From Escherichia phage vB_EcoM_112: DNA of 64,000 bases. A program made the translations under genes and the position numbers. Positions 856 to 13,184 of this stretch are shown here, one piece after another. Under the pieces are notes generated by a model. It did not search any database, was not told where the DNA came from, and worked only from the letters and a program-made list of their open reading frames with translations. Location of the stretch: the sequence record NC_024125.2; one strand, given 5' to 3'. Each line of letters opens with the position of its first letter. Within the stretch, counting starts at the first letter, position 1.

Positions 856-1824
<969 letters not shown>

Positions 1825-6155: not shown

Positions 6156-6821
6156 TTAAAATTTCATTTTTCGACCTTTAAACCATCCTTCTGGAATTGG
6201 GTCAGTTTTCTTAATACGTTTAGAAACTTTTTCATCTAATGAATGAATCCACATCATACCGAATTGGGAATTCTTTTCACCTTTCTGGTGATTATTTTTG
6301 GCGTGAGATTCTTTCATTTTATTAATAGTTTCAGGAGTATGGGTCTTACCCAAGAAAGATTTAGTATTTAAAAATTTCTCTCTATACTTAGGATTATCCC
6401 AAAGCTGTTTAAACCTTTCTGAACCCATTTTACGATATTTTTCTTTAAGGTCTGGGTCGTTCTCAAATCTGGTTTTAAAAGCGGCAGCTCCTTTTAAGGA
6501 AGCTTCTTTCTTTTTATCCAAATATTCTTTAGTGTTTAAATGGTCCCAACCACCTTCACCACCTAATTTCAAATTATAAACATCAGGGCGCTTTAAAAAC
6601 TCTTCAGTCACAATATTCTTTTCTAACTCAAACATAGAGGTTTTATCGTCAAAGAACTCTAATATTTCTTTAGAAAAATTTTCTATACCATACTTATCTT
6701 GGGCTCTTTTTAATAATTTACCAGAACCCATATATCCATCATCTAAATTTTCGGTAGAATGAGCGCCTATATAGATTTTATTATTAATTTTATTTGTTAT
6801 TTTATAAATGTAATGGAACAT
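6156..6821 (-). CDS. segB: GIY-YIG homing endonuclease
   Basis: 221 aa; N-terminal GIY-YIG motif (HYIYKITNKINNKIYIGAH); lies inside the tRNA cluster as T4 segB does. Confidence 0.85.
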   Translation of the reverse strand: MFHYIYKITNKINNKIYIGAHSTENLDDGYMGSGKLLKRAQDKYGIENFSKEILEFFDDKTSMFELEKNIVTEEFLKRPDVYNLKLGGEGGWDHLNTKEYLDKKKEASLKGAAAFKTRFENDPDLKEKYRKMGSERFKQLWDNPKYREKFLNTKSFLGKTHTPETINKMKESHAKNNHQKGEKNSQFGMMWIHSLDEKVSKRIKKTDPIPEGWFKGRKMKF

Positions 6822-7821: not shown

Positions 7822-8205
7822 TCAGCCTTCATCAACAATAGTATGAGTATGGGCATTTACAATTTGCCACCAATCAAAGCGATTAGAACCATACATCGGT
7901 TTGTTTTCATTTTCTTTGATAATATCACGGAGTTCATCTTCAGTAGCGGCTTTCGCGATTAAATCAGCATATCCACCACGAGGATAATAATTATCACCTG
8001 CAAAAAGTAAAAAATTTGGTGTAATATTATTGAACTCTTCAAGAGTAATAACTGTTCCTGATGGTAGTTGAACAATCTCTACATAGTTATATCCTAATTT
8101 TTGAGCAGCATCTACTGCTTCAAGCAGGGTATCATGAGCCCGTCCTATTTGGCAATTTGGCTTTTTAGATGGATTAGCCTGATAATCCGCGTACACTTTA
8201 TACAT
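7822..8205 (-). CDS. hypothetical protein (127 aa from ATG at 8205)
   Basis: Track ORF 7822..8238; ATG at 8205 (MYKVYADYQ) has RBS AAAGGTGA and avoids overlap with the upstream ORF. Confidence 0.55.
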   Translation of the reverse strand: MYKVYADYQANPSKKPNCQIGRAHDTLLEAVDAAQKLGYNYVEIVQLPSGTVITLEEFNNITPNFLLFAGDNYYPRGGYADLIAKAATEDELRDIIKENENKPMYGSNRFDWWQIVNAHTHTIVDEG

Positions 8206-8206
8206 T

Positions 8207-8392
8207 CTATTCACCTTTAGAAATTTTATCCATAACAATAGCGATTAAACCAATTAAAAATGCTACTACAAGTGAAAACACATTTTCTGCTGTAGTCAAT
8301 AATCCACATATAAATCCAACAAACATTGAAAAACTAAAAGCGGAAGCAGAAATTGCAATAGCAACATTTCGAATTAATTCACAACGTTTCAT
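8207..8392 (-). CDS. hypothetical small membrane protein (61 aa)
   Basis: Almost entirely hydrophobic (AIAISASAFSFSMFVGFICGLL...VVAFLIGLIAIV); first gene after promoter element at 8412..8450. Confidence 0.5.
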   Translation of the reverse strand: MKRCELIRNVAIAISASAFSFSMFVGFICGLLTTAENVFSLVVAFLIGLIAIVMDKISKGE

Positions 8393-8411
8393 TTTATTCT
8401 CCTCAGTAGTA

Positions 8412-8450
8412 GATAGGGTAATAGTATCACTACCCTATCTAAAAGTAAAC
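8412..8450 (-). promoter_or_regulatory. early-type promoter with inverted repeat (promoter/stem-loop element), copy 1
   Basis: Minus strand: GTTTAC (-35), about 18 nt, TACTAT (-10); perfect inverted repeat gatagggta-atagtatcac-taccctatc on the spacer and -10. Confidence 0.55.
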
Positions 8451-8684
8451 TTATTTTTTACGAAAAATTGATTTATATTTATCAGCCCATTTCTCGATGA
8501 CTTTTTCTGGTCCATAGATAACAAAATAATCACCAAACTCTTCACCACCGAGTTGACCGAAATTATCTAATGCATCACGAAGAACTCCATGAGGCATTTC
8601 GCCCATTTTATCTTTCTTGCCAATGTAAATAAACTCAACTTTTACATCAGCAGCTTCAGCAATAAATTCTTGATACATTTTCAT
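8451..8684 (-). CDS. CTS-bearing internal-protein-like protein (77 aa)
   Basis: ATG at 8684 preceded by GGAG; N-terminus MKMYQEFIAEA; track ORF extends to 8702 through a non-ATG codon. Confidence 0.65.
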   Translation of the reverse strand: MKMYQEFIAEAADVKVEFIYIGKKDKMGEMPHGVLRDALDNFGQLGGEEFGDYFVIYGPEKVIEKWADKYKSIFRKK

Positions 8685-8711
8685 TTTATTCTCCAATTTC
8701 ACATTTGTTTT

Positions 8712-8750
8712 GATAGGGTAATAGTATCACTACTAAAACCCCGTGTAAAC
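8712..8750 (-). promoter_or_regulatory. early-type promoter with partial stem-loop, copy 2
   Basis: gatagggtaatagtatcactac...gtaaac; minus-strand -35 GTTTAC and -10 TACTAT retained, right stem arm degenerate. Confidence 0.5.
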
Positions 8751-8762
8751 AACTTTGTGAAA

Positions 8763-9020
8763 TTATTTTAAATCTTCTAATCGTTTCTTCATCTTAGAAC
8801 CGTTCTTAGCGATTTCTCCTGCATCAGAGCATAATGCTAAAAGTGCTTTAACTTTAGTTTGGTCTCCTTTAAAAGACGAAGGATCGACTGCAGCAGCAAG
8901 TTCTTTAATACGAGAGAAAAGACGCTCAGCTTCAGCTAAAGCCATTCCAAGCTTTACTTCCATACCGTGGGAAGATTCAGTGATAGTAGTTTTTGTAGCA
9001 AACTCTTTGAAAGTTTTCAT
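8763..9020 (-). CDS. internal-protein-like protein with CTS-like N-terminus (85 aa)
   Basis: N-terminus MKTFKEFATKTTITE; RBS AGGAAAA; own upstream promoter element. Confidence 0.6.
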   Translation of the reverse strand: MKTFKEFATKTTITESSHGMEVKLGMALAEAERLFSRIKELAAAVDPSSFKGDQTKVKALLALCSDAGEIAKNGSKMKKRLEDLK

Positions 9021-9041
9021 TTTATTTTCCTAATTAATTTT

Positions 9042-9080
9042 GATGAGGTAATAGTATCACTACCTCATCAGCATGTAAAC
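9042..9080 (-). promoter_or_regulatory. early-type promoter with inverted repeat, copy 3
   Basis: gatgaggta-atagtatcac-tacctcatc: stem retained by paired changes relative to copy 1 (GG to AG and CC to CT); -35 GTTTAC at 9075..9080. Confidence 0.55.
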
Positions 9081-9092
9081 AACTTTATGAAA

Positions 9093-9789
<697 letters not shown>

Positions 9790-10564: not shown

Positions 10565-11095
10565 TTAAACTTCTGCTATAATTTTGCCATCTTTTTCTAC
10601 TTGAAAATACGTATAAGGAATCGTTGCAGTACATACTAAAGCTGGGTCTGAATCTTCCGTATAGCTAAATTCTACTTCAGATAGGTCAGAAACCCAAGGC
10701 TTATAAAAATTTATTGACATCACGATTTCAGTTTTGCTATTATCTAAAATGTAAAGCGTAATGTACTCAGGACCTGTTTTTTGGGCAGTATTTTCACCTG
10801 TAAGATAGTTGCTAGTTCCTAGCATCCATTCATACATTCCTATCCACGACTTAAGTTCTTCATCAACTATAAATCTCACGATGAGTGGATCGTACTCAAA
10901 TGTAGCACCCGGTCGTTGTGCTCGACCTAGTCCAAACGGCCCAGTCACGGTATCAGTAACAGGTATTCTAATTCCTGGAATAGGAACTGACTGAGCATTT
11001 AAAGTAAAAGCAGATGTAGTATTACTGTGTGGTATTGATACTACAAAGTTAGTTGTATTTGCTTGGTTAAAAATTTGTTGCAGAGCTTGCGACAT
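10565..11095 (-). CDS. 3: tail completion / sheath stabiliser gp3
   Basis: 176 aa from ATG 11095 (MSQALQQIFNQ...), matching T4 gp3 length; track ORF starts 27 codons upstream. Confidence 0.8.
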   Translation of the reverse strand: MSQALQQIFNQANTTNFVVSIPHSNTTSAFTLNAQSVPIPGIRIPVTDTVTGPFGLGRAQRPGATFEYDPLIVRFIVDEELKSWIGMYEWMLGTSNYLTGENTAQKTGPEYITLYILDNSKTEIVMSINFYKPWVSDLSEVEFSYTEDSDPALVCTATIPYTYFQVEKDGKIIAEV

Positions 11096-11201
11096 ATATT
11101 CCTCATAATGCTTTATAATTGTTGGTGGTATAATGGGTCTAAGTCCCTTCCATTCAATTCCATTTAGAACAAACAACAGAAAAGAATGGAAGATAATAGA
11201 A

Positions 11202-11876
11202 TTAATTTATTAGACTTCTTAAACGAGCAGAAGTCATAAATGGAAATTTTTCTAAAGTTGGCTTTCGCCAATATCTCGGATGACAAGTTGATTTAAAATC
11301 AAGAACAATTTTCTTTGCTTCATCAATAGTGTTAACTCCAAAGTTATCTAACATTATTTTCTTTTCTTTTTCCCACCGTTTATTAGCTAAAGCAGATTGA
11401 AGCTTTTTGTTTTTAAATGTGTCATTTTTTCTAGAATGAGTTGTTCCTTGTGTCGGACTCCATCCTCTTCCTAAAATAAATCCCTCAGGAATTATATCTC
11501 CATCATGCAATTTTATACATCTTTTACCATTATTATAATATTTTCGTCCAGTTTGTGTATTTGAAATATTATTTGCATGTTTTCTTTTTAACCAACCATA
11601 AACTTTATTATTTCTCCTAACATATTTAGTTGAAACCGTCATTTTTATGGCTGCATAAGATAATTTTAAAGAATTTGGGTGTATTTTTACTAATAGCTGA
11701 TGTGCAACATAATGCTCTTCTGGAGTTAAATCAACCAAGTTAGAAGCACCATTACTACCGCCTAAACATTTCGGAATAATATGATGTCTTTCTTTATATC
11801 CAGTAAGGGCTCTATTGCGAGCCCTATCAATTAGTGAATTATAAATTTTTTCATAATTCATCGTACATTGCTCCAA
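11202..11876 (-). CDS. HNH homing endonuclease (free-standing, inserted between genes 2 and 3)
   Basis: HNH core [30 protein letters not shown]; basic C-terminal half; start overlaps 3' end of gene 2 (alternative ATG at 11861). Confidence 0.8.
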
Positions 11877-12685
11877 ACTTTGTTTGCAGAGAAACGTTTT
11901 CCTTTGGAGTAGAAGCTTTGGAGCGGCATCAACACAACGTTCGCCCAGTCTTTCGGGGCGATTTCAACAAGGCTACCCATAATATTACCAGGTATATATG
12001 CCTTAATCATTTGATCTGCACCCCTAAATCCTTTCACTTGACTCCAATCAATTTTTAATTTCGTTTTATTAGTAATAGTAGGTGTATTTGAATATTGCTT
12101 TAAAAGCTCTTCTAGAAACTGTTGACGAGCTTTAGGCGGAATATAGTGCAAGTTTAATCCGTACATTAAATTATGCTTACCTAAACCAAGGTAAATTATC
12201 AAAGGAAATTTATCCCAGTAAGGAAGAGTTTCCTTGTGTTTAGCATCATAAGCAAAAGCATATATTCGTCCCGGCTGCGGGCGAACAACTTTATGTCCTT
12301 TTACTTGCTTAATAGTTTCGGCAAACCACTTTCTGGTTTTATTATTAATTGCTGCACCTTCATTACGAATTTTATCACGCAATGTTTGTCTGAATGAATT
12401 TATCATAAGCAGTTGTCTTTCTTGCTTATTGAGTTTATTCATTGGTTTTGATTCAAGCTTTTGAATCTTTTCAGCCGTTTTAATTCCTGAAGCATATTTT
12501 GACATTGCTGAAGTAAACGTAGAGTATTTGATTCCTCTTTCTTCAGCAAATTGCTTTCCTGTCATTCCTTTTGCTTTGGCCTTTTTATATTCAAGACCTA
12601 TCTGAATCCATTTCTTTTCGTTTAATGATTGCTTAACCTTTGGAACTTGGGGAGTGCTTTCATTAATTATTTGAAAAATAGCCAT
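11858..12685 (-). CDS. 2: DNA end-protector protein gp2
   Basis: 275 aa (T4 gp2 about 274); position between genes 4 and 3. Confidence 0.8.
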
Positions 12686-13139: not shown

Positions 13140-13170
13140 GATTCTCCTTATAAATAGATAATATATTTAT
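13140..13170. promoter_or_regulatory. divergent late promoters for genes 4 (minus) and 53 (plus)
   Basis: plus-strand TATAAATA at 13151..13158 and tatttata at about 13165..13172 in the 47-bp gap. Confidence 0.55.
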
Positions 13171-13184
13171 AAACAGGAGGGCCC

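Follow-up and report, generated by a model that had tools for sequence, protein, structure and literature searches.

Sequence comparisons indicate that an open reading frame (ORF) on the minus strand of the window, which is the whole stretch of 64,000 nt analysed here, is very probably a freestanding homing endonuclease gene of the T4 Mob (HNH) type, belonging to a lineage dedicated to the gene 2/gene 3 junction of T4-like (Straboviridae) phages. The gene itself is already known. GenBank has contained it since the RB32 genome was deposited (2006), and it was included among mob-like genes in 2010, when RB32 was listed with two mob-like HNH genes (Petrov et al. 2010, PMC2993671). RB32ORF146c (YP_803088.1) is the same gene, with 99.5% amino-acid identity and the same slot between genes 2 and 3, and its annotation reads 'homing endonuclease; similar to mobB; not conserved from T4 position'. 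Orthologues are also found in RB33, HY03, fPS-2, Elenatom and others, and the copy in the window differs from that of RB32 by a few substitutions. The sequence-only reading that preceded this work missed the existing annotation in RB32 and many other phages; the feature is of an ordinary kind for T-even phages, and its recognition is a correct rediscovery. The fidelity of the gene to the gene 2 stop codon across genera and a polymorphic patch in gene 2, both described below, are incremental additions to what was known.

The endonuclease gene and the edges of its cassette

The window represents a Tequatrovirus-like phage with no more than 97% identity to any record over its first 25 kb. The longest frame of the ORF covers 11202..11876 on the minus strand and encodes 224 aa from a TTG start. 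Judged from its context and its homologues, the true start is almost certainly the ATG at 11861, which gives a protein of 219 aa (11202..11861, minus strand, with the stop codon TAA at 11204-11202). The TTG at 11876 would add five codons ahead of this ATG and is an unlikely start, since it lies inside the GGAG ribosome-binding site, since MNY or MDY forms the N-terminus of the homologues (25 of 25 aligned) and since the ATG is the annotated start in the RB32, Elenatom and fPS-2 records. The sequence-only reading had described a 224-aa ORF that starts within the end of gene 2 and lies between two conserved genes. The ORF on the minus strand stands, while its length has to be corrected to 219 aa; the overlap was borne out by the ATG (11861-11859), which forms an ATGA together with the gene 2 stop codon TGA (11860-11858). 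The location was also confirmed, as the flanks could be identified by synteny with the T4 and RB32 records. Upstream lies gene 2 (DNA end protector, 275 aa, 11858..12685, minus strand), the probable target gene, and downstream lies gene 3 (tail completion or sheath stabiliser, 176 aa, 10565..11095, minus strand), which matched Phage_T4_gp19 in Pfam; both genes are collinear with their annotated counterparts. On the minus strand the elements follow one another as 4 - 2 - ORF - 106-bp spacer - 3 - 1.

The left edge of the cassette is the endonuclease-linked form of gene 2 codons 270-275 with the stop codon (11858..11878, minus strand), which includes the ATGA overlap. Here gene 2 ends in GTT TGG AGC AAT GTA CGA TGA, compared with GTC TGG TCA AAT ATC TAA in T4. 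Since the window-type end was found, in the rows sampled, only in records with the ORF or its remnant, the cassette supplies its own last five codons of gene 2. The GGAG Shine-Dalgarno sequence (11871..11874, minus strand), 9 nt upstream of the ATG, was created by the serine switch from TCA to AGC at gene 2 codon 272. The right junction reads TAA|TTCTATTATC in both occupied and empty forms, and in Dhakavirus it is likewise precise (...TAA|TCTATTATCC). The 106-bp spacer between genes 2 and 3 (11096..11201, minus strand) is kept downstream of the insert, with 1 difference in 106 nt relative to T4. The alignment of both edges showed that the gene, a promoterless cassette of 0.66 kb, is inserted exactly at the gene 2 stop codon.

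Two further observations were made at these edges. The spacer (11096..11201) is almost invariant between occupied and empty Tequatroviruses, and blocks of it are also conserved in Dhakavirus (TCTATTATC; TTGAATGGAA..GAC.TAG.ACCATTATAC); the spacer contains no late-promoter consensus. The last 10-16 nt of the endonuclease ORF (11204..11219) resemble the gene 2 3′ terminus of the empty allele in both genera, with AAGTCT..AAAT..TAA common to the ORF end and T4 gene 2, and GAATT(T/C)ATAA common to the Dhakavirus phages QL01 and WG01. This likeness could be microhomology left from the original insertion, or it could be chance. The ~16 terminal nt might also be what is left of the recipient's gene 2 terminus, although the family conserves the C-terminal peptide (LRxLI) at the protein level.

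A consensus scan of the same strand detected no late promoter between gene 4 and the ORF. The only match to the T4 late-promoter consensus (TATAAATA) upstream of the ORF was located ahead of gene 4 (13164..13171, minus strand), so that the ORF would be read as part of a late 4-2-3 transcript. Scans for sigma-70 promoters and for terminators gave signals at chance level. RNA folding around the start codon predicted a weak structure that pairs the GAG of the ribosome-binding site and a hairpin just past the AUG (z -2.2); it would suit coupling-dependent translation but is too weak to count as significant. The ORF is probably translated by coupling to gene 2. The mobA, mobC, mobD and mobE genes are likewise promoterless cassettes (PMC2988022).

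A Mob-type HNH module joined to a private C-terminal half

The ORF product consists of two parts. The N-terminal Mob-type HNH nuclease module (residues 1-95; 11577..11861, minus strand) is common to Mob-like genes at many other loci, and it contains the HNH (beta-beta-alpha-metal) core (residues 24-54; 11700..11792, minus strand), which was delimited from the residues invariant in 61 relatives and from an AF2 model. The lineage-specific C-terminal half (residues 96-219; 11205..11576, minus strand) is presumed to be the DNA-binding or specificity domain. In the 61-sequence alignment H26, H27, N41, E49, H50 and H54 were invariant. The clear HNH core claimed by the sequence-only reading was therefore recovered with its H-N-H residues intact, and the degenerate motif that the reading had named as a possible refutation was not observed. 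The same reading had pointed to a basic C-terminal half; that half is indeed basic, but this is not peculiar to it, as both halves are equally basic and the protein has a pI of 10.15.

The AF2 model of the ORF product had an overall pLDDT of 91. In the HNH core (pLDDT >95) it predicted strands at residues 24-27 and 42-45 and a helix at 47-60 in a beta-beta-alpha topology, with the catalytic His at the end of strand 1, the Asn and the metal-binding His of the helix arranged on this fold as in HNH / His-Me finger enzymes. The C-terminal half was modelled as a beta-hairpin (106-119), a flexible low-confidence linker (~130-150) and a four-helix bundle (152-218). The protein matched PHROG 655 'homing endonuclease' with an E-value of 1e-57. 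Pairwise BLASTP comparison with the T4 Mob proteins, which took in MobB, MobC and MobE and left out MobA and MobD, gave 60% identity to MobE over residues 1-62 (E 2e-26), 44% identity to MobB over residues 1-114 (E 3e-29) and 33% identity to MobC (E 3e-17), and the three alignments end at residue 62-128 of the ORF product. A Foldseek search of viral models retrieved MobB (E 1e-10), MobC and many phage HNH endonucleases. When the C-terminal 122 residues (98-219) were used alone in a tblastn search of an annotated phage collection, they matched only 76 phage records, with one place in each. The C-terminal domain thus goes together with the locus, as it should if it gives a site-specific enzyme its specificity, and it agrees with the T4 Mob proteins in being specific to its own member. 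By all the sequence-level characters of the family, the ORF product is a T4 Mob-family HNH protein.

Pfam gave nothing above threshold, either with default settings or at E<=10 (HNH, PF01844, 12.8 versus 21.4 bits; HNH_5, PF14279, 15.3 versus 27.5 bits); PF01844 was matched at E<=0.01 by 16 of 26 relatives of the ORF product. The protein has TPEEH in place of CxxCH and therefore lacks the Cys4 zinc site that PF01844 members typically carry, which lowers its score. A search of PDB sequences yielded no significant match to any solved structure, and Foldseek against the PDB gave weak local HNH matches only (Cas8-HNH and McrA, E>=0.4). An NCBIfam match to IscB was rejected as spurious, being below threshold and confined to the HNH core. 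The NUMOD3 and I-HmuI-like modules (Pfam PF07460 and PF22083) were not matched in the ORF product even at E<=10; these NUMOD-type domains were found only in relatives with other C-termini, and the resemblance of 'IPEGFILGR' to them was noted by eye.

The AT-rich context and the lack of a Pfam match above threshold would be compatible with an ORF that arose in an AT-rich spacer by chance or through faulty annotation. This explanation is extremely improbable, and we regard it as refuted by the PHROG match and the confident AF2 model given above, by the 2926 homologues detected at E<=1e-3 in a large protein database, and by the ratio of substitution rates. Among homologues from different genera, where dS could be estimated, dN/dS was 0.14-0.30 in both halves of the protein, values that are rough upper bounds because dS is saturated between genera; they show that a functional protein has been under selection over the long term.

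A second ORF of the window deserves mention here. It encodes 221 aa (6156..6821, minus strand), begins MFHYIYKITNKINNKIYIGAHS and ends ...IPEGWFKGRKMKF, and lies in the tRNA and internal-protein region; its sequence resembles that of a freestanding homing endonuclease of the GIY-YIG (Seg-like) kind. What it has in common with the HNH ORF is limited to a short 'IPEG(W/F)xxGR' motif.

Distribution, signs of mobility and decay of the gene at the gene 2/gene 3 junction

A 2.1-kb query spanning genes 3 to 2 matched 513 phage records. It was covered in full in 35 of these related records (occupied), whereas about 478, T4 included, aligned in two pieces at 69% coverage, which means that about 660 bp are absent from the empty records. 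The endonuclease gene is missing from T4 and ~93% of its close relatives, and in T4 genes 2 and 3 are separated by the 106-bp spacer without an ORF. The sequence-only reading had supposed that T4 lacks an endonuclease here and had proposed to compare this interval among relatives, where a gene present in T4 and all of them would speak for a core gene; such general presence was not observed, and T4 carries an intact empty site as do the other ~478 of 513 records. The same polymorphism was detected in Dhakavirus, where 9 of 58 records are occupied and ~85% are empty.

The position of the gene is constant. All 17 full-length tblastn matches that were sampled (>=99% coverage, 50-99% identity) overlap or adjoin the DNA-end-protector gene; in 3 of these rows the endonuclease or gene 2 is unannotated, and the position was read from the record. 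The full-length matches came from Tequatrovirus, Citrobacter phage Ursula, Erwinia phages Gravdalen and Cronus, the Dhakavirus QL01, VR25 and Acinetobacter phages W16 and AC4. The 4-2-ORF-3-1 order, with an overlap of 1 or 4 nt at the gene 2 stop, was seen in QL01 (Dhakavirus), in AC4 (Lazarusvirus, subfamily Twarogvirinae) and in Cronus (Roskildevirus), and the gene recurs at the gene 2/3 site in at least 10 host genera. The N-terminal ~95 residues, in contrast to the C-terminal half, have Mob-like counterparts at numerous loci and in numerous phages. In a scan of IMG/VR with the family alignment, all the matches listed were related to the N-terminal domain alone and lay elsewhere in the genome. 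A scan of IMG/VR with gp2 gave 53 loci, none of them with this gene downstream of gene 2; 3 were on close Tequatrovirus contigs, too small a number for a census of alleles. No Rfam family, group I introns included, was detected in the region at E<=1, so the gene is freestanding and not intron-encoded. Like the Mob genes, it stands free between conserved genes and occurs sporadically, with an intact empty site in its absence.

In three distant T4-like IMG/VR contigs (one of 235 kb) a different Mob-like HNH gene was observed upstream of the gp2 homologue, at ~340-940 of each locus, with similarity restricted to the N-terminal 107 residues (46-55% identity). The gene 4/2 neighbourhood thus hosts other HNH insertions too. 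Elsewhere in the window, the internal-head-protein region (~7880..9140) is hypervariable, with 20-45% pairwise divergence or non-homology among six genomes, and it matches the Ip cassette swaps annotated in RB32.

Several observations indicate that the presence of the gene is uncoupled from the history of its flanks. Nucleotide diversity among six occupied genomes was 0.71% in the endonuclease gene compared with 3.35% in gene 3, 2.02% in gene 2 and 2.26% in gene 4, a result to be read with the small sample and with the fact that other 200-bp windows nearby are also low. Over gene 3 and the spacer, 5 nt separate the empty T4 from the occupied RB32, but 24 nt separate RB32 from CE1, which is occupied as well. 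Gene 2 shows the same pattern, so the flanks do not sort by occupancy. The empty phage F26 is 98.6% identical to the flanks of the window and is closer to it than several occupied genomes.

Decayed copies were found at the same site. Shigella phage CT01 carries a 486-bp internal deletion that removed the HNH motif; it retains the recoded end of gene 2 along with 40 nt from the start of the ORF and ~130 nt from its end. In FL23 and FL44 a deletion of 1 nt shifts the frame, and the gene is annotated as two pieces; the copy in CE1 has an in-frame deletion of 3 nt. A 57-aa 'hypothetical protein' of CT01 (1138..1311 of the extracted locus) is an in-frame remnant of the endonuclease gene.

Such decay raises the question of whether the copy in the window is itself a recently dead homing endonuclease gene, kept because its loss would disturb the gene 2 stop codon and downstream translation. 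The cassette does supply the stop codon of gene 2, which would favour retention, and T4 itself retains the defunct I-TevIII (PMC2988022, PMC2790892). The window's copy also carries a private substitution, D38G (codon 38, 11748..11750, GGT compared with GAT in five other Tequatrovirus copies), two residues before the conserved Asn region. However, residue 38, which lies within the GGSN(D/G)ASN of the HNH loop, varies across the family (D/A/K/E/S) and is not among the invariant positions, all of which are intact in a full-length ORF. The ORF is intact at >=99% identity in ~32 genomes, that is in ~32 of 36 copies, and the variable codons of the five full-length copies comprise 6 synonymous and 4 nonsynonymous ones. 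Together with the long-term purifying selection on both domains, this makes a dead copy unlikely.

Purifying selection on both domains would equally be expected if the gene had been domesticated as an accessory nuclease acting with gp2 or in head completion (DNA end processing), like the terminase-assisting HNH proteins of HK97-like phages. The constant synteny with gene 2 over two subfamilies at 50-64% identity and the translational coupling also fit such a role. We nevertheless consider it very unlikely. The phages that lack the gene, which make up ~93% of Tequatrovirus and ~85% of Dhakavirus relatives, are viable, and isolates that lost it by deletion or frameshift still grow. It has the N-terminal domain of MobE, a mobile enzyme, its diversity is below that of flanks which do not sort with its presence, and T4-type packaging relies on gp17 as its nuclease. 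A homing endonuclease, as proposed by the sequence-only reading, accords better with these data, and all the in-silico predictions of that reading hold: Mob homology, an intact H-N-H, empty sites, precise insertion, a freestanding gene, decayed copies and presence uncoupled from the flanks.

The 3′ end of gene 2 as a candidate target and comparison with known systems

Differences between T4 and the window in gene 2 are concentrated at its 3′ end, where 16 of 25 fall in the last 63 nt (hypergeometric P 2.5e-13) and form two clusters, at codons 254-260 and 270-275. The first is a polymorphic patch (11906..11926, minus strand) in which 12 of 21 nt differ from T4, mostly synonymously (four codons). 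Between the two clusters lies a 29-nt block (gene 2 codons 261-270; 11877..11905, minus strand) that is the same in occupied and empty Tequatroviruses. We regard the patch as a candidate nick site or immunity determinant and the 29-nt block, by analogy with MobE, as a candidate binding site for the DNA-binding domain. On the same analogy, the target may lie in the 3′ end of gene 2 and need not be the 2/3 junction itself. In Dhakavirus, QL01 (occupied) and WG01 (empty) have nearly identical gene 2 sequences but for a stretch of 60 nt, at the corresponding position, that contains 17 differences. Clustered and largely synonymous substitutions around codons ~250-260 thus occur in two genera within an otherwise very conserved gene.

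Strict linkage of the codon 254-260 patch to the endonuclease gene was ruled out. About 14 Tequatrovirus genomes (e.g. 215Ecol030PP and GRNsp7) carry the patch with a T4-type terminus and without the insert, and the empty Dhakavirus JS10 resembles the occupied QL01 at the patch. The patch may for this reason be ordinary mosaicism, but it could equally represent an allele for resistance or the product of recombination. Immunity would be explained most simply by the insert itself, which splits the site. A more far-reaching idea is an arms race across genera between the gene 2/3 Mob lineage and its target in the gene 2 3′ end, with the patch as the nick site, the ~14 empty carriers resistant and the enzyme serving mainly as a weapon of interference. 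We consider this idea doubtful. If it were true, the enzyme would damage the essential DNA-end-protector gene of co-infecting phages, and the ~14 patch-bearing genomes without the gene would represent naturally resistant alleles.

For the preferred reading, a freestanding Mob homing endonuclease gene, the following course of events can be proposed. Late transcription would start at the promoter ahead of gene 4, and coupling to gene 2 would allow a low level of translation. When two phages infect the same cell, the private C-terminal domain would bind the conserved 3′ end of gene 2, perhaps with the start of the spacer, in a genome that lacks the gene, and the N-terminal HNH domain would then nick or cut nearby. 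Recombination-dependent repair of T4 would copy the gene and a short flanking tract from the donor. The host genome would be protected because the insert splits the site, because the substitutions in gene 2 codons 254-260 and 270-275 alter it, or by both. We infer the nuclease activity, the choice between a nick and a double-strand break, and the target site from the sequence, and no biochemical or genetic test of the ORF product or of any orthologue was found in the literature searched.

The discovery value of the gene is small. It has a modest value as a model, since functional data on Mob proteins exist only for MobE and partly for MobA. Occupied alleles, empty T4-type alleles, empty alleles with the recoded patch, internally deleted alleles and frameshifted alleles form a natural allelic series, and this series, together with the recurrence at one site described above, makes the questions of specificity, immunity and nick versus break testable.

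Among the known systems, MobE of T4, located between nrdA and nrdB, resembles the present gene in being freestanding and promoterless, in overlapping the upstream stop codon and in its sporadic occurrence among relatives. The two differ in that MobE has 141 aa, a short and different C-terminus and a target in nrdB, while the ORF product has 219 aa, a private C-terminal domain and the gene 2/3 locus. MobE is a mobile, strand-specific nicking enzyme that depends on its HNH motif and has its target in an adjacent conserved gene, and its expression needs upstream transcription (PMC2790892). At the nrdB site the region that is nicked is polymorphic and borders on a conserved block to which the C-terminal domain is thought to bind; the nrdB polymorphisms are believed to shield mobE-carrying genomes (PMC2790892). 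The gene 2 patch beside its conserved block resembles this pattern. MobE has resisted cloning. MobB, encoded between alpha-gt and alpha-gt.2 of T4, and MobC share the two-domain layout and were matched by Foldseek at the level of models, but their C-terminal halves are unrelated to that of the ORF product and their loci differ; the activity of both is listed as 'ND' (Edgell et al. 2010, PMC2988022). Later genomes label the present gene homing endonuclease, HNH endonuclease or, loosely, 'mobB'. As a statement of orthology the last label, used in some records (e.g. CAM-21), is a misnomer, and annotators should not take it to mean orthology to T4 mobB.

I-HmuI and I-TevIII also join an HNH module to an extended DNA-binding region, but they are intron-encoded, whereas the ORF is not; I-HmuI is a nicking enzyme that still promotes homing (PMC2988022, PMC2790892). 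The terminase-associated HNH proteins of the HK97 gp74 type differ in distribution and in neighbourhood, since the present gene is absent from most relatives and adjoins genes 2 and 3 instead of the terminase. The Seg endonucleases (SegF, SegG and others) have the same freestanding intergenic lifestyle with a different catalytic fold (GIY-YIG). Their way of life, as an intergenic cassette with a target in the neighbouring conserved gene, includes co-conversion of flanking markers and marker exclusion (PMC2988022).
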